Counted from the stretch's first letter, positions 22,126-31,604 are shown. The stretch: DNA of 37,808 nucleotides from Solirubrobacterales bacterium (GCA_036257695.1 DATAFB010000131.1:1-37808); one strand, 5' to 3'. Numbers and translations are program-made. The notes: generated by a model from the letters alone, not told the origin.

Positions 22126-22925
22126 GCCGAGCGTTCGGGGTCACCGCAGGGCTGGAGCGGGGAATCGCGGAGCCGCTCGCGGGACGCTGCCAGATGCTCG
22201 GCTACGAGTCGATGTGGTCGAACGACCACCCGGCGGCGAGCGGTCTCGACACGCTGGCCGCGTTTGCCCGGTCGGTGCCGGGGATCGATCTCGGGGTCGC
22301 GGTGCTGCCGCTGGATCGTCACTCCCCGCGCGAGATCGCACGCAGGATTCAGGAGCTCGGGTTGCCGCGCGAGCGGTTGTGGATCGGCGTGGGGGCGGGC
22401 TTCTCCGAGCGCCCGTTAACCCGGATGCGAGATGCGTTGCCAGCGCTGCGAGATGAGCTTCCCGATGTCCGCCTCGTGCTCGCCGCGATGGGACCGAAGA
22501 TGTGCTCGCTCGCCGGCGCCGCGTACGACGGCGCGTTCCTTAACTGGATGACGCCCGAGTTCGCCGCCGGTGCCCGCCGGCAGGTCCACGCCGGGGCGCG
22601 CGAGGCCGGCCGCAAGCCGCCGCCGGTGCTCGGCTACGTACGGGTCGCGGTCGGGCGCGACGCGCGGGAACGCCTGCTCAAGGACGAATCCTTCTATCGC
22701 GACCTTCACGACGGCTATCGCAGCCACTTCGCTCGGCTCGATGCGGAGCCCGGCTCCGTCGGGGTCGCGAGCGAGAGCCCCCACGCGGCGCATGCGGACC
22801 TCTCTCGTTACGAGGGACCGCTCGACGTCGTCGTGATCCGCGCGCTGGCGAGCGCGACACTGCGGGCGATGACGGCGCTCGCCGAGGCGGTTGCCCCGGG
22901 CGGCTCGGAGGCGCGGCTCACGTGA
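22122..22925 (+). CDS. Luciferase-like (LLM class) flavin/F420-dependent oxidoreductase
   Basis: I chose TTG 22122 (TTGA overlap with the rlmD stop), giving the N-terminus SRAFGVTAG typical of LLM proteins. GYESMWSNDH and the rest of the LLM fold pattern follow. Confidence 0.75.
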   Translation: MSRAFGVTAGLERGIAEPLAGRCQMLGYESMWSNDHPAASGLDTLAAFARSVPGIDLGVAVLPLDRHSPREIARRIQELGLPRERLWIGVGAGFSERPLTRMRDALPALRDELPDVRLVLAAMGPKMCSLAGAAYDGAFLNWMTPEFAAGARRQVHAGAREAGRKPPPVLGYVRVAVGRDARERLLKDESFYRDLHDGYRSHFARLDAEPGSVGVASESPHAAHADLSRYEGPLDVVVIRALASATLRAMTALAEAVAPGGSEARLT

Positions 22926-24412
22926 CCGCGCGGCGGGTGGCGCTGGTGGCGCGTCCGCTCGGCGTCGCGGCCGCGCTCCATCTCGCGGCGGCGGCCCCGT
23001 CCTTCGCCGCGCCGAAGCCCCCGCTCGGCCACGAAGGGCGCTGGATCACCGACGCCGCGGGGCGGGTCGTGATCCTGCACGGGTTCAACATGGTCTACAA
23101 GGTCGGCTCCTACCGCCCCGAGGACACCGGTTTCGGTCGCGACGACGCGCGCTTCCTGCACCGGCACGGCTTCAACACGGTTCGGCTCGGGATCATCTAC
23201 AAGGGCCTGGAGCCGAACCCGCCCGGGCCGGACGGCAAGCCGCGATACAAGCGCGGCTACCTGCGCAGCATCGCCCGCACCGAGCGCGCGCTCGCGAGGA
23301 GCAAGATCTTCACCCTGCTCGACTTCCACCAGGACCTCTACAACGAGCGCTTCGAGGGCGAGGGATGGCCCGACTGGCAGACGCTCGACGATGGACTGCC
23401 GGCGGAACCCGAGAACGGGTTCCCGACCAACTACCTGACGATGCCCGCGCTGCAGCGCGCGTTCGACCACTTCTGGGCCAACGACGCGGCGCAGGGGGTT
23501 TCGCTCCAGGAGGCGTACGCGCGCGCGTGGCGGGTGGTCGCGCGGCGGTTCGAGCGCCGACCCCGGGTGGCGGGCTACGACCTGCTCAACGAGCCGTGGC
23601 CCGGCTCGGTTTTCCCAGGCTGCCTCAACCCGGCGGGATGCCCCGCTTTCGACTCCGGCTCGCTGACCCCGTTCTCGAAGCGGACGATGAGGGCGATCAG
23701 GTCGGTGGACCGCACCACGATGGCCTTCTACGAGCCCAACGTCCTGTTCGACTACGGTGCGCGGACCTCGCACGGCGATACGGGCGACCGCCACGCCGGG
23801 TTCAGTTTCCATCCGTACTGCCTGCAGGGAGGGGGTGGCGTCGGAACGACATCGTGCGAAGACAACCTGCGTTCCGTGTTCCGAAACGCTGCCAACCACG
23901 TCGAACGGACCGGCGATGCCTCGCTGGTGACTGAGTTCGGCGCCACCGATGAGCTCGCTCGGATCCGCCAGGTGATCGACCTCGCTGACCGCCACATGGT
24001 GGGGTGGCAGTACTGGCACTACTGCGACTGCGACGACCCCACGACCGATGGTCCCGGGGTGCAGGCGCTCGTGATCGACCCCTCCGAACCGCCGCGCGGC
24101 GACAACGTCAAGCGCCCGAAGCTGAAGCTGCTGGCGCGGCCGTTCCCGCAGGCGGTCGCGGGAACCCCGACGCGGTACTCGTTCGATCCCGACGCCGGTG
24201 TCTTCGAACTCGTCTACTCGACGCGCGGCCCCGACGGTGACCGGCTCCCCCGCCGCGCGCAGACCGAGATCCGGGTGCCGAGGATCAACTTCCCGGACGG
24301 CTATTCCGCGCAGGTGGACGGGGCCGCAGTGACGTCCCGCGACGACGCACCGGTGCTGCGGCTGCGGCGGGAGCTGGGTGCGGACCAGGTCAGCGTGCTC
24401 GTGCGGCCCTAG
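22922..24412 (+). CDS. Secreted glycoside hydrolase family 5 (endoglycoceramidase/cellulase-like) with a C-terminal beta-sandwich domain
   Basis: GTG 22922 (GTGA overlap with the LLM stop). Signal peptide ends ...AAAAPSFA. GH5 acid/base LLNEPWPG and nucleophile VTEFGA are present, along with HGFNTVRLG and LLDFHQDLYNERF, as in endoglycoceramidase-type GH5. Confidence 0.8.
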   Translation: MTARRVALVARPLGVAAALHLAAAAPSFAAPKPPLGHEGRWITDAAGRVVILHGFNMVYKVGSYRPEDTGFGRDDARFLHRHGFNTVRLGIIYKGLEPNPPGPDGKPRYKRGYLRSIARTERALARSKIFTLLDFHQDLYNERFEGEGWPDWQTLDDGLPAEPENGFPTNYLTMPALQRAFDHFWANDAAQGVSLQEAYARAWRVVARRFERRPRVAGYDLLNEPWPGSVFPGCLNPAGCPAFDSGSLTPFSKRTMRAIRSVDRTTMAFYEPNVLFDYGARTSHGDTGDRHAGFSFHPYCLQGGGGVGTTSCEDNLRSVFRNAANHVERTGDASLVTEFGATDELARIRQVIDLADRHMVGWQYWHYCDCDDPTTDGPGVQALVIDPSEPPRGDNVKRPKLKLLARPFPQAVAGTPTRYSFDPDAGVFELVYSTRGPDGDRLPRRAQTEIRVPRINFPDGYSAQVDGAAVTSRDDAPVLRLRRELGADQVSVLVRP

Positions 24413-24438: not shown

Positions 24439-24618
24439 ATGGACCTCGAGGAGCGCTCGATCGAGGAGCTGCCCGACCGCTGTCAGAGCTGCGGGGCGCA
24501 GCTCACCGACGCCGAGAAGCAGGCGGCGCTGGAGTCCGGCCGCAGCCTGGTGCTGTGCACGACCTGCGCCGCAGAGCAGGTGCCGCTGGCGGACGACGTC
24601 GAGGAGCCTGACGTCTAG
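24439..24618 (+). CDS. 59-aa zinc-ribbon-like protein (not in the supplied ORF track)
   Basis: ATG 24439 to TAG 24618: MDLEERSIEELPDRCQSCGAQLTDAEKQAALESGRSLVLCTTCAAEQVPLADDVEEPDV. It has two CxxC pairs and strongly G/C-biased third codon positions, like the neighbouring genes. Confidence 0.55.
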   Translation: MDLEERSIEELPDRCQSCGAQLTDAEKQAALESGRSLVLCTTCAAEQVPLADDVEEPDV

Positions 24619-25271
24619 TAAGGCGGCAGCTCGTCGTACCACGCGCCGAGCGAGCGAAACGCGCCCCAGAACTCGCGCTTCGTGCCCTCCTCGTCGAGGG
24701 CCGCGTCGATGTCGGGGACGAACAGCGCGTCGACGGTCGGGGTCAGCGACTGCACCTCGCCGGGGTCGGGCTCCAGCCGCCGCGACAGCGGAACCTCGAG
24801 CTCGTTCAGCGTCTCCAGCGCGGGCTCGCCCATGACGACGACGATCCGCGGCGAGACGATCGCCAGCTCCTCGACCAGCCTCGCGACGCAACCCGGGTCG
24901 GCGAGCGCGGGATCCGACAGCGGGCACTTGACGCACAGCGTCCCGTACACGACCAGCGGGTCGATGCCCAGCCGCTTGAAGCTCTTCATCAGCGCGTTCC
25001 CGGCGCGACCGTAGAACGCGACGCCCTCCTCGACCTCGGCGGCGGTCGGAGCGTGCTTGAGCAGGACGACGTCGGCCTGAGGGTGGCCCGAGCCGAGCAC
25101 CGGCTGCAGCCTGCCGCGGGGGCATCCCTCGCAGGCCTGGAGCTCGCGGGTGAGGTCGTTGAGCTCGCGGATCGCCCGCTCCAGGTACTTCTCCTGGATC
25201 TCGTCGTCGGTCGTCGGCACAGTCCGGCCTCTCTTTGACGATCCGCGACCGGCTCCTGCGGAGTGCATCAC
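24615..25271 (-). CDS. Uracil-DNA glycosylase superfamily (family-4-like, Fe-S type) protein with diverged catalytic motifs
   Basis: Family-4-like layout: CEGC ... VLGSGHPQADVVLL ... FYGRAGNAL ... VKC ... GC. The start is uncertain: ATG 25271 overlaps the upstream stop, and GTG 25220 with an AGAGAGG RBS is an alternative. Confidence 0.7.
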   Translation of the reverse strand: MMHSAGAGRGSSKRGRTVPTTDDEIQEKYLERAIRELNDLTRELQACEGCPRGRLQPVLGSGHPQADVVLLKHAPTAAEVEEGVAFYGRAGNALMKSFKRLGIDPLVVYGTLCVKCPLSDPALADPGCVARLVEELAIVSPRIVVVMGEPALETLNELEVPLSRRLEPDPGEVQSLTPTVDALFVPDIDAALDEEGTKREFWGAFRSLGAWYDELPPY

Positions 25272-27262
25272 TTCTTGCCTCGGCGGTCCGTCCGTTTCAC
25301 CGATTGTCGCGTCGACGCCCTCCCCTGACGGCGGCCGCCGCGGACCGCCCGCGCCCGCTTCGCGGCCCGCGCGCGGCGGGCGGGACGCGGGCGGCCGGTC
25401 GTCTGCAGGAACTTCAGCGTCTGGACGTAGACGAGGTTCTTGCGCTTGTGGACGATGTCGGCGTCGCGCATCCCCTCGAGGAACTCCTGCGGCCCCTCGA
25501 ACTCGCTCAGTCTTATGCGGACGCTCCCGAGCCCCTGCGCGACGTGGCTGTCGGAGCCGGCGCCGGGGACGATCCGGTACTTGGTCGCGAACCGCTGCGC
25601 CTCCTCGTTAAACGACGACAGGGTGATGCGGGGGTTGAAGACCTCGAGGATGTCGATCTCGTCGACGAACTCGAGCAGGTGCTCGTAGTCGGGCACCGAG
25701 TGCATGCGATCGAACGGGTGCGGGACGTACACCAGCCCTCCCTGGCGCCGAATCTCCGCGATCGTCTCCGCCATCGTCATCCCGCGCGGGATCTCCTGCT
25801 CGAGGAAGAGACCGATCACCTCGCCCTCCTCGGCGGTCTTGATCTCCTCGGCGACGATCACCTCGATCCCGTCCATGCCCGCCGCCAGCTCGCGCGCCTC
25901 GAGCGCCCCCGAGATCACGTTGTGGTCGGTGATCGCGATCGCCCCCAGCCCGCGGTCGCGCGCCGTCTCGAGCAGCACCTCGACGGGGGTCGCCGAGTCG
26001 GGCGAGTGGTCGGTGTGCATGTGGAGGTCGCAGTGGATCGATGGCCGCGACGCGAGCCGGCGCCGGATCGCTGGGTTGCCGCGCGGATCGTGCCTCCGGG
26101 CGCAGATCTCGCGGTAGATCCCCGCGAGCCGCTCCGTCGTCGCCGCCCAGCTCGCGACGGCGTCGCGGCCGCGCCCGGCGAGCTCCGCGCGCAGCTCCGG
26201 GTCGGCGATCAGGCGCTCGACCTGGCCGGCGAGCGTGATCGCGTCGCCGGGCGGGAACAGCAGCCCCAGCTCGCCGTCCTCCGTCAGCTCCTCGTAGATC
26301 GGGAGGTGCGAGACCACTGGGACCGCGCCAGAGGCGAGCGCCTGGCGGACGATCCCCGGCGCCGGGAGCGAGCCTCCGGACGCCGCGCAGACGACGTTTG
26401 CGTCGGCGATCCAACGCTCGGGCGGGCCGTCCGCGGGGCCGACCAGCGATACGCGCTCGCGCAGCCCGCGGCTGAGACGCCGGGCGTACTCCGGCAGCCG
26501 CTCGGCCCACACGGTCGCCTCCCACTCGCGATCCGCCGGAAGGCGGCGCAGCGCGCGCAGGAACAGCCGCAGCGCGCCGCGCTCCTCGCGCAGGCAGAAC
26601 ACGATCCGGGGCGGCGCGTCGCGACTGCGCCGCGAGCCCGGTTCCGGGTCGGCGCCTGGCGGCACGAGCGCGTAGCCGCCTGGGAAGTAGCGGCCGACGA
26701 GCTCCCCGGTCCCCCGGGTGCTGACCGTCCTCGCGTCGAGGCGGCCGAAGAAGATCTCGACCAGCGGCCGCGCGACCTGGGTCGACAGCAACCGCTCGGT
26801 CGGCTCGTGGAAGCTGCCGACGTTGAGCGACCGCGAGTGGCGAAGCGCCGTCGAGGAGGTGCTGGGGACGAACGGGTCGTGGACGTGGACGACGTCGAGC
26901 TCGATCCCCCCGAGAAGCTGGTCCAGCGTGCGGCTGACGTCGAGCGGCACGGGCGCGACCCGCGGACGCGGGCCGCGGGGCATCGGGAGCCCCTGGCCGA
27001 CCGCGAGCACCGCCGCGCCGTCGGAGTCCCGCTCCGGGGCCAGCTCGAAGATCGAGTCCGGTTTTCCGTCGAGCGCGGTGCGGATCGCGCGCCTCGAGTC
27101 GCGGATCGCGGTGCGGGAATCGGACGGAGCCGCGACGAGCACCCGATGGCCGCGTTCGGCGAGCCCGGCGCTTACCTTCCGCACGAACTCGTTGACCTCG
27201 TGGTACGGGCCCCAGGTGTGCGGCGTGACGTGGGCGATCGAAAGGCGCTCGCGGCCGGGCAC
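25268..27262 (-). CDS. Fusion protein: GT4 (GT-B, PimA/MshA-like) glycosyltransferase domain + PHP-family phosphoesterase domain + basic C-terminal tail
   Basis: GTG 27262. Residues ~1-395 are GT4-like (IAHVTPHTWGPY...GHRVLVAAPS, ...ASGAVPVVS...GELGLLFPPGD). Residues ~410-620 are PHP (CDLHMHTDHSPDS, ITDHN, AEE, VPHPFD, GSDSH). The last ~45 aa are Arg/Lys-rich. Confidence 0.8.
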   Translation of the reverse strand: MPGRERLSIAHVTPHTWGPYHEVNEFVRKVSAGLAERGHRVLVAAPSDSRTAIRDSRRAIRTALDGKPDSIFELAPERDSDGAAVLAVGQGLPMPRGPRPRVAPVPLDVSRTLDQLLGGIELDVVHVHDPFVPSTSSTALRHSRSLNVGSFHEPTERLLSTQVARPLVEIFFGRLDARTVSTRGTGELVGRYFPGGYALVPPGADPEPGSRRSRDAPPRIVFCLREERGALRLFLRALRRLPADREWEATVWAERLPEYARRLSRGLRERVSLVGPADGPPERWIADANVVCAASGGSLPAPGIVRQALASGAVPVVSHLPIYEELTEDGELGLLFPPGDAITLAGQVERLIADPELRAELAGRGRDAVASWAATTERLAGIYREICARRHDPRGNPAIRRRLASRPSIHCDLHMHTDHSPDSATPVEVLLETARDRGLGAIAITDHNVISGALEARELAAGMDGIEVIVAEEIKTAEEGEVIGLFLEQEIPRGMTMAETIAEIRRQGGLVYVPHPFDRMHSVPDYEHLLEFVDEIDILEVFNPRITLSSFNEEAQRFATKYRIVPGAGSDSHVAQGLGSVRIRLSEFEGPQEFLEGMRDADIVHKRKNLVYVQTLKFLQTTGRPRPARRARAAKRARAVRGGRRQGRASTRQSVKRTDRRGKK

Positions 27263-27277
27263 CCGCGCAGGATAGAG

Positions 27278-28450
27278 CTACGTCTCGGCCTGCTCCGGCG
27301 CGAGCTCACGCGGCTGCTCGCGGATCGCGGTGCGCGCGTGGTCGCGAATGAACTCGTCGGTCATGTCGCGCGCGACGGGGTCGGGCCGCTGCGTGTGCGG
27401 AGACTTCATCAGGTAGCTGGAGGGCCCGTCGAGCTGGCCGGCGATGCCGTGGTTGAGCGCCAGCTTCACGATCCGCACGGCGTCGATCACGATCCCGGCC
27501 GAGTTCGGCGAGTCCCACACCTCGAGCTTGAGCTCGACCGTCAGCGGCACGTCGCCGAACGACTGCCCCTCGAGCCGGATGTGCGCCCACTTGCGATCTC
27601 CGAGCCACTCGACGTAGTCGGACGGCCCGATGTAGACGTTCGCGTCGGAGATCTCGCCGTCCATGATCGAGGTCACGGCGCGGGTCTTCGAGATCTTCTT
27701 CGACTCGAGCCGCTCGCGCTCGAGCATGTTGTAGAAGTCCATGTTGCCGCCGACGTTGAGCTGGCTCGTGCGCTCGATCCGCACGCCGCGGTCCTCGAAC
27801 AGCCGCGCGAGCTGGCGGTGGACGATCGTCGCGCCGACCTGCGACTTGATGTCGTCGCCGATGATCGGTAGCCGGGCCCGCATGAAGCGCTTGTTCCAGT
27901 AGTCCTCGCGGGCGATGAACACCGGCAGGCAGTTGACGAACCCGACGCCCGCCTTGATCGCCTGCTCGACGTACCACTTCGTCGCCTGCTCGGAGCCGAC
28001 CGGCAGGTAGCAGACCAGCACGTCGGTCTTCGTCTCCTGGAGGATGCCGACGATGTCGTCGGTCTCGCCCGGCGCCTTGGTGATCTTCTGCTTCAGGTAC
28101 TTGCCGAGCCCGTCGTGGGTCATCCCCCGATGCACCGGCACGCCCAGGTTGGGGACGTCGGAGAAGCGGATCGTGTTGTTCTGTCCAGCGAAGATCGCCT
28201 CCGAGAGGTCCTTGCCGACCTTGTCGGCGTCGATGTCGAACGCCGCGGTGAACTCGATCTCGCGGACGTGGTAGCCGCCGAGCTCGACGTGCATCAGCCC
28301 CGGCACCGTCTGGGCCGGATCGGCGTCGCGGTAGTAGTGCACGCCCTGGACGAACGAGCTCGCGCAGTTGCCCACGCCGACGATCGCGACGCGCACCTTG
28401 TCGTCGCGGTCCGGGGCGCCGTTTCCGTGGGCTCCGCCTGTCGTGCTCAT
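27278..28450 (-). CDS. ino1: myo-Inositol-1-phosphate (inositol-3-phosphate) synthase
   Basis: It follows the bacterial/archaeal Ino1 pattern closely: [59 protein letters not shown]. Confidence 0.92.
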
Positions 28451-28519
28451 CCGAGGGCTCCTCTCGCGGTTGGCCGTCTTATCACACCCGATCCGAGACC
28501 GGGTTACATAGCACGCCCG

Positions 28520-29182
28520 TCACACCTTCCTCGCCTCGGCGCCCTCCAGACCCGACAGCTCGCGCCGCACGTGCAACACGCGCTGCACGACCGTGATCGC
28601 GGTCAGGGCGCCCATCACGTAGATCGCGGGGGCCAGCAGCTCGACGTCGAAGATGCCGGCGCCCTTGGCGAAGACCAGGCCGATCGACAGGATCACCACC
28701 CGCACGGGCCGGCTCGCAAGCCCGACCTTGCACTCCACGCCCAGCGCCTCCGCCCGCGCGCGGGTGTAGGAGACCATCAGCGAGCTGAGCACGACGAGCA
28801 CGCAGGCCGCGGCCGCGATCTCGTCGCCGCGCTCGGCGAAGTACCACGCGACGGCCGCGAGCACGACACCCTCCTCGGTCCGGTCGAGGGTGGAGTCGAG
28901 GAAGGCGCCGAACAGCGTCCCCTTGCCCGACATCCGCGAGTAGCGGCCGTCGAGGGTGTCCATCACCGAGCCGACGATGAACGCCACGCCGGCGAGGAAG
29001 AAGAGGCGCTGCGTGACGAGCACCGCGGCGGCGAGGTTGAGCGCCAGGCCGGTGATCGAGATCGTGTTCGGCGTCAGCCGCGACTCGATCAGTGCCTCGC
29101 GCGCCATCGCGCGGAGCTCCTGGCCGCTGCGGGCGCGGCGGGGCGGGCGTCCGGTGCGGGTTGGGGGAGTCTCGATCGCCAT
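28520..29182 (-). CDS. CDP-alcohol phosphatidyltransferase (phosphatidylinositol-phosphate synthase-like)
   Basis: 220-aa membrane protein with the family motif D-x2-DG-x2-(A/S)R-x7-8-G-x3-D-x3-D (MDTLDGRYSRMSGKGTLFGAFLDSTLDR). Size and the position next to ino1 fit PgsA1-type PIP synthases. No cytidylyltransferase domain is present. Confidence 0.8.
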   Translation of the reverse strand: MAIETPPTRTGRPPRRARSGQELRAMAREALIESRLTPNTISITGLALNLAAAVLVTQRLFFLAGVAFIVGSVMDTLDGRYSRMSGKGTLFGAFLDSTLDRTEEGVVLAAVAWYFAERGDEIAAAACVLVVLSSLMVSYTRARAEALGVECKVGLASRPVRVVILSIGLVFAKGAGIFDVELLAPAIYVMGALTAITVVQRVLHVRRELSGLEGAEARKV

Positions 29183-29193
29183 CTCGCCGCCCG

Positions 29194-29982
29194 TCAGGCG
29201 GTGACCTCACCGGCCGGCTCGCGCTCCGACCCGGGCCAGGCCCAGTGGTAGGGGCGCAACGGGCTCAGCACCCGAGCGGCGATCAGCGCCGCGATGCTGG
29301 CGACGGCCGCACCGGCGGCGGCGTCGAACCAGTAATGGTTGGCCGTGACCACGATGACGAAGAACACGAGCGCCGGATACACCGACCAGAAGGTGCGCGA
29401 GGCGGCGTACTTGGCGAGCACCATTCCGGGTACCGAGATCATCAGGGCGAAGGCGATGTGCATGCTGGGGACCGCGGCGTACTGGTTGACAAGCAGCCCG
29501 ACCGCGCCCGTGTCCTGGTCGACGTTGGTTGCGATCGCGATCGTGTCCGTGAAGCCGGCCTCCGGGAAGAATCGCGGCGGCGCGGTGGGGAAGGTCGCGT
29601 AGCCGATCAGCGCAATCCCCATCGCGACCACGAACATGTTGCGGACGAAGTAGAAGTTGTCGTTGCGGGCCAGGTACAGCCACGCCAGGAACGCCGTCGT
29701 GATCACGAACTGGGCGTTGATGTACATGAAGTTCGCGGTGTCGATCAGCCACGCGTGGTCGAGCACCGCCTGCTGCAGGTTGGCCTCGAAGAACGTCCCC
29801 AGCGTGCGCTCCAGCTCGATGATCCGCTCCCCGTTCTGGAACGCGATCGCGACCTGGCCGTCGGCGAGCCCGCGGACGACCTGGTAGCCCTGGTAGACGA
29901 TCAGGAAGAGGGCGAACTGCCACAGCAGATCGCCCCACCCTCGCGGGAGGCGACGGCCGATGGATGAGACGACGGAGCGCAC
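29194..29982 (-). CDS. PAP2_C-type membrane protein (inositol-phosphorylceramide synthase/AUR1-like head-group transferase family)
   Basis: GTG 29982. Polytopic protein whose C-terminal half carries the paired motifs VPSMH and NHYWFD. These match the H/H/D catalytic signature of the IPC-synthase/sphingomyelin-synthase branch of PAP2. Confidence 0.7.
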   Translation of the reverse strand: MRSVVSSIGRRLPRGWGDLLWQFALFLIVYQGYQVVRGLADGQVAIAFQNGERIIELERTLGTFFEANLQQAVLDHAWLIDTANFMYINAQFVITTAFLAWLYLARNDNFYFVRNMFVVAMGIALIGYATFPTAPPRFFPEAGFTDTIAIATNVDQDTGAVGLLVNQYAAVPSMHIAFALMISVPGMVLAKYAASRTFWSVYPALVFFVIVVTANHYWFDAAAGAAVASIAALIAARVLSPLRPYHWAWPGSEREPAGEVTA

Positions 29983-30036: not shown

Positions 30037-30854
30037 TCAGCGCGCGTCGAGGAACGCGGCGACGCGGTCGACGACGTCGGGGCGCTCTAGCCACGGCCAG
30101 TGGCCGGCGTCTTCGAGCTCGACCAGCTCGGCGTTGGGGAGGACGCGGGCGTAGTCGCGGGCGAACCGTGCCGGGAGATAGGGATCGCCCGTCCCCCAGA
30201 CGACCAGGGCGGGGCAGGTGAGCTCGCTCTGCCGCGAACCGGCAGTCCCCAGGGTGGCCTCGTCGGCGGAGCGGTACAGCTTGAGGATCGCCCGCCGGGT
30301 GCCGCGGTCGTAAGTCTCCCAGATCATGTCGATGAACTCGCTCGGCATCGGCCCGCGGTCGGCGCGAGCCTGGCGCATGCCGAGCGCGAACCCGGCGCGA
30401 GTCGAGGTCGCGTTCACAGCTTCCCCGATCCACCGGCGCCGCCACAGCCGCGCGACCAGTGCCACCGGTAGCCCGGGAGCAGCGGGACCACGTCGATGAT
30501 CACCAGCCGCCGGACCCGCTCCGGGTCTCGCTGCGCCGCGATCAGCGCGACGACGCCCCAGTCGTGGACGACCAGCTTGTGCTCGTCGATCCCGACGGCG
30601 TCGAGGAACCGGTTCACGAACGTGGCGAGGCCGTGCATCGTGCCGTCGAATCGCTCCGGCCCGGGCCGCTCGGATCGCCCCCACCCCGGCAGGTCCAGGG
30701 CGATCGCGGGACCGCCGACCCGGTCCAGGAACGGGATCCAGTCAGCGGAGTGGCTCGGGTTGCCGTGCACGAACAGCGTCGGCACTCCCTCTCCGGGCTT
30801 GCGGCGAAGGAACGTCCGCACGCCGTCGACCTCGACCGTCGCCTTCTCGATCAC
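30037..30854 (-). pseudogene. Alpha/beta hydrolase (haloalkane-dehalogenase/epoxide-hydrolase-like) interrupted by a 1-nt frameshift near 30454-30455
   Basis: The N-terminal half (VIEKATVEVDGVRTF...LFVHGNPSHSADW...VVHDWG...GYRWHW) ends in one frame. The C-terminal half (ARLWRRRWIGEAV...VVWGTGDPYLP...DAGHWPWLERPD) continues in another. Inserting one base after TGG (56-58) restores ...YRWHW-x-ARLW... Confidence 0.75.
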
Positions 30855-30878
30855 GGTGGCGCACCATATCCTCGCCGC

Positions 30879-31604
30879 GTGGCGGTCCGAGCGTGGAAAC
30901 GGCCCTCGAAGCGCCGGGTGCGCGCGATCCGGGACCGGCTGCGCGAGATATACGGCCGGCCGACTCAGGTCCCGCATGGCAATCCGGTCGAGGAGCTCGT
31001 GCGCACGATCCTGTCGCAAAACACCAACGACACCAACCGCGATGTCGCGTACGCCCGGCTGCGGGAGCGCTTCCCCACCTGGGAGGAGGTGCGCGCCGCG
31101 CCGCTGGACGAAGTCGCCGAAGCGATCCGGCCCGGGGGGCTGGCGCCGCAGAAGGCGCCGCGGATCCAGGCCGCGCTCCAGGACATCACCAACCGCGCGA
31201 CGCCCGGACGCGGAGCGGAGGACGTCGCGCGCCCTGATTCCTTGGACCTGTCGTGGCTGAAGGACGCTCCCCGCGAGGACGCGCTGGCCTTCCTCGTCTC
31301 GCTGCCCGGCGTGGGGCGCAAGACGGCGGCGTGCGTGCTGATGTTCTCGTTCGGCCGGCCCGAGATCCCCGTCGACACCCACGTCTACCGGGTCGGCGGC
31401 CGGCTGGGATTGTTCCCCTCCAATGCGTCGTTCGAGCTCGCCCACGACGAGATGCGCGCCATCACCGACCCGGCCGACGCGTACGAGCTGCACATCAACC
31501 TGATCCGGCATGGTCGCGCGGTCTGCCGGCCGCGCCCCCGGTGCGAGGAATGCGCGCTACGACGGATGTGTCCATACTGGCGCGGCCTGGCCCGTCCGCC
31601 TTAG
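30879..31604 (+). CDS. nth: Endonuclease III (HhH-GPD DNA glycosylase with Fe-S cluster)
   Basis: ILSQNTND, HhH LPGVGRKTAACV, catalytic VDTHVYRV, and C-terminal Cys ligands CRPRPRCEECALRRMC. The start is taken as GTG 30879 (uncertain; GTG 30918 is an alternative). Confidence 0.85.
   Translation: MAVRAWKRPSKRRVRAIRDRLREIYGRPTQVPHGNPVEELVRTILSQNTNDTNRDVAYARLRERFPTWEEVRAAPLDEVAEAIRPGGLAPQKAPRIQAALQDITNRATPGRGAEDVARPDSLDLSWLKDAPREDALAFLVSLPGVGRKTAACVLMFSFGRPEIPVDTHVYRVGGRLGLFPSNASFELAHDEMRAITDPADAYELHINLIRHGRAVCRPRPRCEECALRRMCPYWRGLARPP

Follow-up and report, generated by a model that had tools for sequence, protein, structure and literature searches.

A PimA-derived GT4::PHP fusion protein encoded in an inositol-lipid operon of Solirubrobacterales is a candidate phosphatidylinositol-phosphate phosphatase

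In a 37,808-nucleotide contig of a Solirubrobacterales bacterium (GCA_036257695.1, DATAFB010000131.1:1-37808; the window), which is contig 69 of a 1.5-Mb assembly that is 61% complete, one minus-strand gene (25268..27262) encodes a protein that joins a glycosyltransferase family 4 (GT4) half, related to the mannosyltransferase PimA, to a PHP metal-phosphoesterase half and a polybasic tail. We lean slightly towards the view that this fusion is a peripheral-membrane phosphatidylinositol-phosphate (PIP) 3-phosphatase, which the PimA remnant and the basic tail would dock at the membrane. Its fusion to PimA and its position directly after the genes for a PIP synthase and an inositol-phosphate synthase make the PHP half a strong candidate PIP phosphatase, one specific to the lineage. 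The proposal is built on domain anatomy, motif states, gene order, phyletic pattern and deletion variants, all of which were observed directly.

The open reading frame is uninterrupted and begins with GTG. In the encoded protein, Pfam models for Glyco_transf_4 (residues 25-207), Glyco_trans_1_4 (218-354), PHP (412-490) and PHP_C (551-600) all scored over their cut-offs, and the models of the GT4 C-terminal domain together span residues 218-366. The gene and its parts are as follows.

25268..27262, minus strand: whole GT4::PHP fusion gene, 664 residues; its stop and the start of the next gene share 4 nt
26660..27244, minus strand: PimA-type N-terminal Rossmann domain (residues 7-201), the acceptor/membrane side, retained even in short forms; GG loop changed to H21/E22, with N24, H126, H128 and H152 retained
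26135..26659, minus strand: degenerate donor-binding C-terminal Rossmann domain (residues 202-376), missing through in-frame deletion from the short forms that five genomes of the order carry
26342..26371, minus strand: remnant of the EX7E motif (residues 298-307), with L299 (or S298) at PimA E274 and Q307 at E282
26039..26134, minus strand: last GT-B helix and linker (residues 377-408), retained in short forms
25400..26038, minus strand: PHP and PHP_C metal phosphoesterase domain (residues 409-621), with ligand positions H414, H416, D422, H447, E473, H515, D571 and H573 present
25271..25399, minus strand: polybasic tail (residues 622-664), 19 Lys/Arg and one Asp/Glu in 43 residues

A preliminary description of this stretch, made from its sequence alone, had likened the GT4 half to PimA and proposed that both glutamates of its EX7E signature were replaced, by Ser/Leu and Gln. 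Both proposals held. By sequence, the best solved relative of residues 1-400 is PimA (4n9w/2gej; HMMER, E 1.3e-13, 53.5 bits). The GT-B architecture of two Rossmann domains was recognised by PF13439, PF13579, PF13692 and PF00534, all above their cut-offs, and the Atlas model of the fusion (pTM 0.80) aligned to PimA-named clusters at TM scores of 0.77-0.80, the whole GT-B fold being PimA-like. When an alignment of 18 fused GT4 halves was compared by hhalign with an alignment of 25 canonical PimA-like proteins of the same class, the two matched over 373 columns with a probability of 100 and an E-value of 1e-61, gap-free around the EX7E motif. In this register, with which the HMMER alignment to PimA concurs, PimA E274 corresponds to L299 and E282 to Q307; MAFFT instead sets S298 at E274, which is the source of the earlier "Ser/Leu". 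Residues 288-322 contain no Asp or Glu, so a catalytic glutamate at a shifted position is not available.

The other donor contacts are replaced as well. According to the available part of PMC9202250, PimA G16, R196 and K202 hold the beta-phosphate of the donor, G15 and E282 the ribose, and E274, S275, F276 and I278 the mannose. In the fusion, the GG loop G15/G16 is H21/E22 (hhalign, MAFFT), K202 is G229 (HMMER, hhalign, MAFFT), and R196 falls on a gap (hhalign) or on R225 (HMMER), an Arg found in just 7 of 165 family members. Among these 165 members, most of which are close relatives, G15 survives in 3, G16 in 5, K202 in 5, E274 in 9 and E282 in 26. Positions of the N-terminal domain and the cleft, in turn, are selectively retained: N18 in 146, H92 in 157, H94 in 156, H118 in 156, E199 in 137 and R201 in 153, the corresponding residues of the fusion being N24, H126, H128, H152, E227 and R228. 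The conserved HVHDP of the fusion thus represents PimA H92/H94/E95, and H118 is H152 in FHEPTE. Three of four sequence features of active GT4 enzymes (GG loop, Arg/Lys pair and EX7E) are missing from the GT4 half, and the GT-B architecture alone is present.

Close relatives of the fusion have lost the donor side altogether. In five of 151 genomes of the order, from three families (G396, G450 and G444, all of one genus of family f2; G475 of f3; G461 of f1), residues ~202-376, the whole donor-binding Rossmann domain, are cut out in frame, and the N-domain, the last helix, the PHP domain and the locus are kept. About two dozen short-form clusters of 467-496 residues are also found among 120 proteins listed in a separate search, several on contigs of hundreds of kb to Mb. 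The genome of the window, moreover, encodes a separate canonical PimA-like GT4 protein of 777 residues (contig C167, L002 319-2652, minus strand) with GGV, RKG and ESFG..TE motifs, which matches PimA at E 3.2e-51 and 177.9 bits. It carries a C-terminal LPG_synthase_TM domain, a combination that may couple phosphatidylinositol (PI) mannosylation to a membrane or flipping module. This long form (frames of 773-803 residues) is found in the window's order, and most other families of the class have frames of ~380-450 residues. A PimA-like gene was detected in 56 of 61 genomes of the class, although in some genomes of family f69 that match is the fusion itself; a PHP part beside canonical PimA-like genes was found in none of 30 loci.

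We therefore predict that the GT4 half of the window protein is an inactive pseudo-transferase: the donor-contact set (GG loop, K202, E274, E282) is gone, the locus persists in five relatives of the same order that have lost the entire donor-binding domain, and the genome has its own canonical PimA-like gene. The ratio of nonsynonymous to synonymous substitution (dN/dS, calculated by NG86 against three relatives; dS is compressed in this GC-rich DNA) was 0.25-0.47 for the GT4 half, which on these values is relaxed yet still constrained. Because the N-domain and cleft residues are kept, the dN/dS ratio points to constraint and PimA's N-terminal domain (1-169 and 349-373) is its predicted PI-binding side (available part of PMC9202250), the GT4 half may serve in docking or substrate binding. 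Of the earlier suggestion of a binding or docking module rather than a transferase, the loss of transferase function is thus well supported at the level of sequence and the docking or binding role is a plausible extension. The alternative of atypical chemistry, raised in the same place, is unlikely given the loss of the donor site, the domain deletions and the separate PimA-like gene.

The PHP half presents the opposite picture of conservation. The metal-ligand motifs named in the preliminary description are all present, as H414-M-H416, D446-H447-N448, E473, H515 (in VPHP) and D571-S-H573, and do not vary across 54 fusion homologues or across a set of 32 PHP domains with stand-alone members; each of the eight ligand positions shows little or no variation in either set. 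In a motif-state table of 34 fusions, the eight positions are intact in 31. PF02811 and PF13263 scored above their cut-offs, the distorted TIM-barrel fold of PHP domains was recognised, and the AlphaFold model of this half has a pLDDT of 91.1. YcdX-type trinuclear PHP sites take their ninth ligand from a further His, situated between motifs IV and V. Between H515 and D571 the fusion lacks an invariant His, and E540 and N543, which are invariant there, could substitute as a ligand. With a dN/dS of 0.17-0.23 against the same three relatives, lower than that of the GT4 half, the PHP half is the more conserved half of the protein. The CehA/McbA model NF038032, whose name appears on some records, scored 66.7 bits, under its cut-off of 80, and Pfam gave no PgpA match in the fusion protein.

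The Arg/Lys-rich C-terminus noted earlier is confirmed: Lys and Arg make up 44% of the tail vs 12% of the remaining protein. The proposal that the tail binds anionic membrane or nucleic acid is partly supported. A basic tail (net charge of at least +5) was found in 140 of the 165 family members, mostly close relatives; in deeper branches of the family the tails are short and non-basic, and the basic composition does not distinguish membrane from nucleic acid.

The fusion is real, not an assembly or sequencing error, and is present throughout the class (Thermoleophilia by the source labels, which for the homologues read Solirubrobacterales, Solirubrobacteraceae, Gaiellaceae and Patulibacter). 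The concern that two separate genes had been joined by a sequencing error is answered by the class itself: 20 of its 22 other genomes in a sample of 301 genomes of the phylum (six unpublished genomes enter the tally only) have both halves in a single frame, and a match to the short form of the fusion occurs in 149 of 151 genomes of the order (two unpublished genomes included). In the database search, 7,992 of 8,000 scored candidates matched the fusion, and the 120 matches listed carry both domain sets. Among the matches listed for the phylum sample, none outside the class spans both halves. In a tree of 32 PHP domains, fused forms lie on one side of a branch and follow taxonomy with weak support (57/37), which is compatible with a single origin of the fused form.

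The fusion is the fourth gene of a tight run on the same strand, with gaps of 11, 69 and 15 nt between the successive genes up to it, followed by a 4-nt overlap with a gene of the uracil-DNA glycosylase (UDG) superfamily. Besides the fusion, the run consists of the following genes.

29194..29982, minus strand: PAP2_3 membrane protein of the AUR1/IPC-synthase family, first gene of the run; weak NF052609 match (E 5.4e-5)
28520..29182, minus strand: CDP-alcohol phosphatidyltransferase of the PIP/AIP-synthase type; NF045883 132.4 bits (cut-off 170) and NF040950 132.7 bits (cut-off 180), both under cut-off; PgsA 24.7 bits
27278..28450, minus strand: myo-inositol-phosphate synthase, 15 nt upstream of the fusion; TIGR03450 558.6 bits, under the cut-off of 638
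24615..25271, minus strand: family-4-like gene of the UDG superfamily, whose start overlaps the fusion stop by 4 nt; 47 bits in Pfam, far under the NCBIfam family-4 cut-offs

We searched for these neighbours by tblastn with the window's own proteins, omitting locus G030, which ends at a contig edge. Around the fusion in 20 loci from seven families of the class, inositol-phosphate synthase was found in 19, the PIP-synthase-like gene in 18, the UDG-like gene in 17 and PAP2_3 in 11. All five short-form loci have the inositol-phosphate synthase, PIP-synthase-like and UDG-like genes, and four of them PAP2_3; at the eight f69 loci the same three genes are again present throughout (8/8 each), with PAP2_3 in five. 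Over all 33 fetched loci, the order PIP synthase - inositol-phosphate synthase - fusion is seen in 31 and the inositol-phosphate synthase is adjacent to the fusion in 32. The PimA fusion and the operon are retained across eight families of the class.

A number of observations concern the neighbourhood itself. The UDG-superfamily gene follows the fusion in 30 of the 33 fetched loci, a steady partnership with an inositol-lipid operon. In genome G131 (L078, C1), a member of the class without the fusion, the best PimA-like gene directly adjoins a PAP2_3 gene, which hints that PAP2_3 belongs with the metabolism of PI and phosphatidylinositol mannosides (PIM) independently of PHP. Next to the operon, in the window as in many relatives, lies an alpha/beta hydrolase of the haloalkane-dehalogenase/epoxide-hydrolase type with HGNP and the HDWG nucleophile elbow (30037-31511, minus strand). 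In the window it is split across two overlapping frames, 30414-31511 for the first half and 30037-30684 for the second; in a genome of the same genus (G236, L007) the parts lie in one frame, so the window copy has a frameshift or an assembly error. On the other side of the run, on the plus strand, is a GH5 protein with a GH5 C-terminal domain and a hydrophobic, signal-like N-terminus (22922-24412), which resembles endoglycoceramidase I (270 bits, cut-off 700) and was found at this position, among the fetched loci, solely in the same-genus relative. Contigs of four soil and mangrove RNA libraries, at a likeness of at least 90%, pile up at 27300-28550 over the inositol-phosphate synthase, with summed depths in the thousands, and hardly on its neighbours; this pile-up probably reflects many related, highly expressed synthase genes, not this organism. 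RNA contigs were also considered as evidence for expression of the fusion and set aside, the matches being just 77-257-nt pieces with 5-12 differences each, from relatives.

The state of the two halves differs between families of the class. In f69, 5 of 8 fusions retain K202, E274 and E282. The fusion of G316, from this family, retains GGV, RKG and ESFG..LE, and its GT4 half matches solved PimA at E 4.6e-59, ahead of the canonical PimA-like gene of the window genome (3.2e-51) and far ahead of the fused half in the window (1.3e-13). Six f69 genomes have no PimA-like match at E<=1e-30 other than the fusion. The canonical motifs of these forms, together with their status as the sole PimA-like match, indicate that the ancestral protein probably joined two neighbouring pathway steps. 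In f6, K202 and E282 are retained and E274 is lost, and in the window's order (f1-f3, 17 proteins) none of the fusions retains K202, E274 or E282. The canonical-motif forms of f69, the in-frame deletion forms at the same locus, a reciprocal loss of the PHP half in family f4 (below) and the failure to find PgpA in the class may be counted as additions of this analysis.

In the bacterial PI route, inositol-3-phosphate and CDP-diacylglycerol give PIP, which is converted to PI; the part of PMC6506517 available to us calls the phosphatase of this step unidentified in Actinobacteria. PI is the main polar lipid of Conexibacter woesei (PMC3035278, available part), and PI and PIM are reported in Solirubrobacter (PMC10722151, available part). 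The one characterised type of bacterial PIP phosphatase is BT_1525 of Bacteroides thetaiotaomicron, of the PgpA family (PMC9246714, available part). PgpA (PF04608) was found in 0 of 61 genomes of the class, and control genomes gave matches. Among the literature matches listed, none tied a PHP domain to PimA, PIP or inositol lipids.

Based on the gene order and the domain anatomy, we infer the substrate, the direction of the reaction and the roles of the docking module and the tail as follows. The inositol-phosphate synthase (27278-28450) would make D-myo-inositol-3-phosphate, which the transferase (28520-29182) would condense with CDP-diacylglycerol to PIP, and the PHP/PHP_C half would then hydrolyse the 3-phosphate of PIP to yield PI. 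The N-terminal half descends from PimA, the next enzyme to use PI, with the GDP-mannose site lost in this lineage. What is left of PimA would have no catalytic role and would, with help from the polybasic tail, keep the phosphatase on the anionic membrane and perhaps at the inositol head group, and mannosylation would fall to the intact PimA-like protein that the genome encodes at another locus. In the intact f69 forms, a single polypeptide would take PIP to PI and on to PIM1. We see an even balance for and against the wider account in which the PHP half is the missing PIP 3-phosphatase of the class, having begun as a PimA::PHP enzyme for two steps, a state that some relatives still show, and in which the PimA half shrank to its N-domain, a portable module recognising PI(P) and the membrane, after a second PimA took over mannosylation.

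Several findings weigh against a PIP phosphatase. One comes from family f4, which retains the operon and the fusion (L024-L026; G197, G184, G015) but in which H414, H416, H447, D571 and H573 are replaced in all three loci; 2 of these 3 fusions retain E-x7-E in the GT4 half, a mirror image of the window protein. No intact PHP orthologue was found in five f4 genomes: the best profile matches in four are the degenerate halves, the fifth (G131) is the genome without a fusion, and the other f4 profile matches are partial and lie in unrelated PHP proteins. The PHP half therefore cannot serve as PIP phosphatase in every member of the class. Nor would it solve the step for all Actinobacteria, because several large actinobacterial families of the phylum sample gave no PHP-half match among the matches listed. 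Other hydrolase candidates also exist at the operon, namely PAP2_3 and the nearby alpha/beta hydrolase. Outside the class, PHP stands alone at ~40% identity and adjoins PIP-synthase or inositol-phosphate-synthase genes in 0 of 20 loci, its neighbours being purQ/purB/purD with a B12 radical-SAM gene (6 loci), or BacA, or LCP with PAP2. A CoaE::PHP/PHP_C fusion forms an Atlas cluster of 507 proteins, commonest in Gemmatimonadota, and nucleotides or short RNA are the substrates of the most closely related PHP enzymes that have been characterised.

The stand-alone relatives were considered as a guide to function and rejected as such, given their mixed contexts, their 0/20 association with inositol genes and the lack of a clear lead. 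For that branch in its own right, the CoaE::PHP cluster is a possible lead to a nucleotide 3'-phosphate substrate. Singletons of BacA::PHP and TldD::PHP echo gene neighbours and may be gene-call read-throughs. Neither the 120 longer proteins listed nor the 30 nearest Atlas models include a PHP domain fused to a CDP-alcohol transferase or to an inositol-phosphate synthase.

It is quite unlikely that the protein is a nucleotide or nanoRNA phosphoesterase, akin to RNase AM or to the 3'-phosphatase Cv1693, whose fusion and gene order are historical accidents. Its closest characterised PHP relatives are indeed RNase AM (7ug9, 9etk) and Cv1693 (2yb1, solved with AMP), stand-alone relatives occur among purine genes in the 6 loci above, CoaE::PHP fusions exist and the polybasic tail could bind nucleic acid; however, identity to RNase AM and Cv1693 is just 16-25%, the fusion and the operon have persisted in all eight families, and the PHP tree, for all its weak support, tracks taxonomy and allows a single origin of the fused form. 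We likewise hold little expectation that the PHP half is a soluble inositol-monophosphate phosphatase acting on free inositol-3-phosphate to supply free inositol, with the PimA remnant binding inositol phosphate. The near-constant adjacency to inositol-phosphate synthase, at 15 nt in the window, would suit such an enzyme, and PHP enzymes include small-molecule phosphomonoesterases such as histidinol phosphatase, which is among the lower-ranked matches. Such an activity and the co-encoded PIP synthase would nonetheless be rivals for one substrate, the retained membrane- and PI-facing PimA domain and the polybasic tail suit a membrane rather than a soluble substrate, and the ancestral partner PimA acts on a lipid.

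The arguments for a membrane-side enzyme apply equally to a phosphatase or phosphodiesterase for another head group: phosphatidylglycerol phosphate, a phosphorylated PIM intermediate (mannosylation followed by dephosphorylation) or an inositol-phospho-lipid made by PAP2_3. PAP2_3 is often in the operon, and some stand-alone PHP relatives adjoin the envelope genes BacA, PAP2 and LCP. We consider this unlikely, since 9 of 20 loci lack PAP2_3 near the fusion whereas just 2 of 20 lack PIP synthase, and a PIM-phosphate route requires an active transferase on PIP, of which none is known. Finally, a bifunctional enzyme, in which the GT4 half transfers a sugar by unusual residues and the PHP half dephosphorylates the product, like synthase/phosphatase pairs for sugar-phosphate products, could explain the purifying selection on the GT4 half and the similarity of the Atlas model to PimA-named clusters, and some f69 relatives look fully competent. 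For the window protein it is very improbable: all donor contacts are replaced, the segment around the motif lacks acidic residues, close relatives dispense with the whole donor domain and a canonical PimA-like gene lies elsewhere in the genome.

Several known systems invite comparison with the fusion. Compared with PimA (GDP-mannose:phosphatidylinositol alpha-(1-2)-mannosyltransferase, a GT4 enzyme of the GT-B fold; M. smegmatis, 2GEJ/4N9W), it keeps the equivalents of N18, H92, H94, H118, E199 and R201 and differs by the replacement of G15, G16, K202, E274 and E282 and by the added PHP domain and basic tail; mannose transfer is not expected, and its score to PimA is 53.5 bits vs 177.9 for the genome's own PimA-like gene. 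The PHP half is 21-25% identical to the compact PHP phosphoesterases TM0559 (2ANU), BVU_3505 (3E38), BAD_1165 (3E0F/3O0F), RNase AM/YciV (7UG9, 9ETK) and Cv1693 (2YB1). For the first three, the entry titles name no function assigned by experiment, RNase AM and Cv1693 have RNA ends or nucleotides as substrates, and, as far as the databases used show, none of the five has a glycosyltransferase partner fused to it or a link to inositol genes. BT_1525 performs the reaction proposed for the fusion and is encoded in a similar operon, with inositol-phosphate synthase, PIP synthase, the phosphatase and a PAP2-type inositol-phosphoceramide synthase (PMC9246714, available part); its family is unrelated to PHP, and the fusion would be its functional analogue, not its relative. 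EphE, an alpha/beta-hydrolase, is proposed as a mycobacterial PIP phosphatase partnering with PimA (bioRxiv 10.64898/2026.07.15.738315, available part). The logic is the same, a candidate phosphatase physically tied to PimA, but the fold is unrelated and the association is a predicted complex there vs a fusion here; to EphE, too, the fusion would be an analogue in function. The alpha/beta hydrolase beside the operon was considered as EphE-like and set aside: it keeps the Asp nucleophile (HDWG) where EphE, by the description in the available part of the preprint, has Ala.

A further parallel is sucrose-phosphate synthase, in which a GT4 domain is followed by a C-terminal HAD phosphatase-like domain of the next step and one half, usually the phosphatase-like one, is often catalytically dead. 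It is likewise a GT4-phosphatase fusion, but in the present family decay mostly affects the transferase half, and the phosphatase belongs to the PHP rather than the HAD type. Tll1590 (6KIH), a relative of sucrose-phosphate synthase, gave a weak match to the fusion.

The PIP-to-PI phosphatase has been called unidentified in Actinobacteria from at least 2019 (PMC6506517) to 2026, when a preprint still described it as "as-yet unidentified" (bioRxiv 10.64898/2026.07.15.738315), in the parts of both sources available. The PHP domain does not occur in all Actinobacteria and one family of the class has inactivated it, so the fusion is at best a lineage-specific solution. Its attachment to PimA beside PIP synthase, across a class of abundant soil bacteria with PI as a main membrane lipid, turns the question into a simple assay. 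If the proposal is true, the step would have a third solution, related neither to the PgpA type nor to the proposed EphE type, and the fusion would count as evidence from nature that the phosphatase acts in physical contact with PimA. The family also displays the stepwise conversion of one half of a bifunctional enzyme into a non-catalytic docking module, by way of forms with intact motifs, point losses and whole-domain deletion, and in one lineage it is the opposite half that dies instead.

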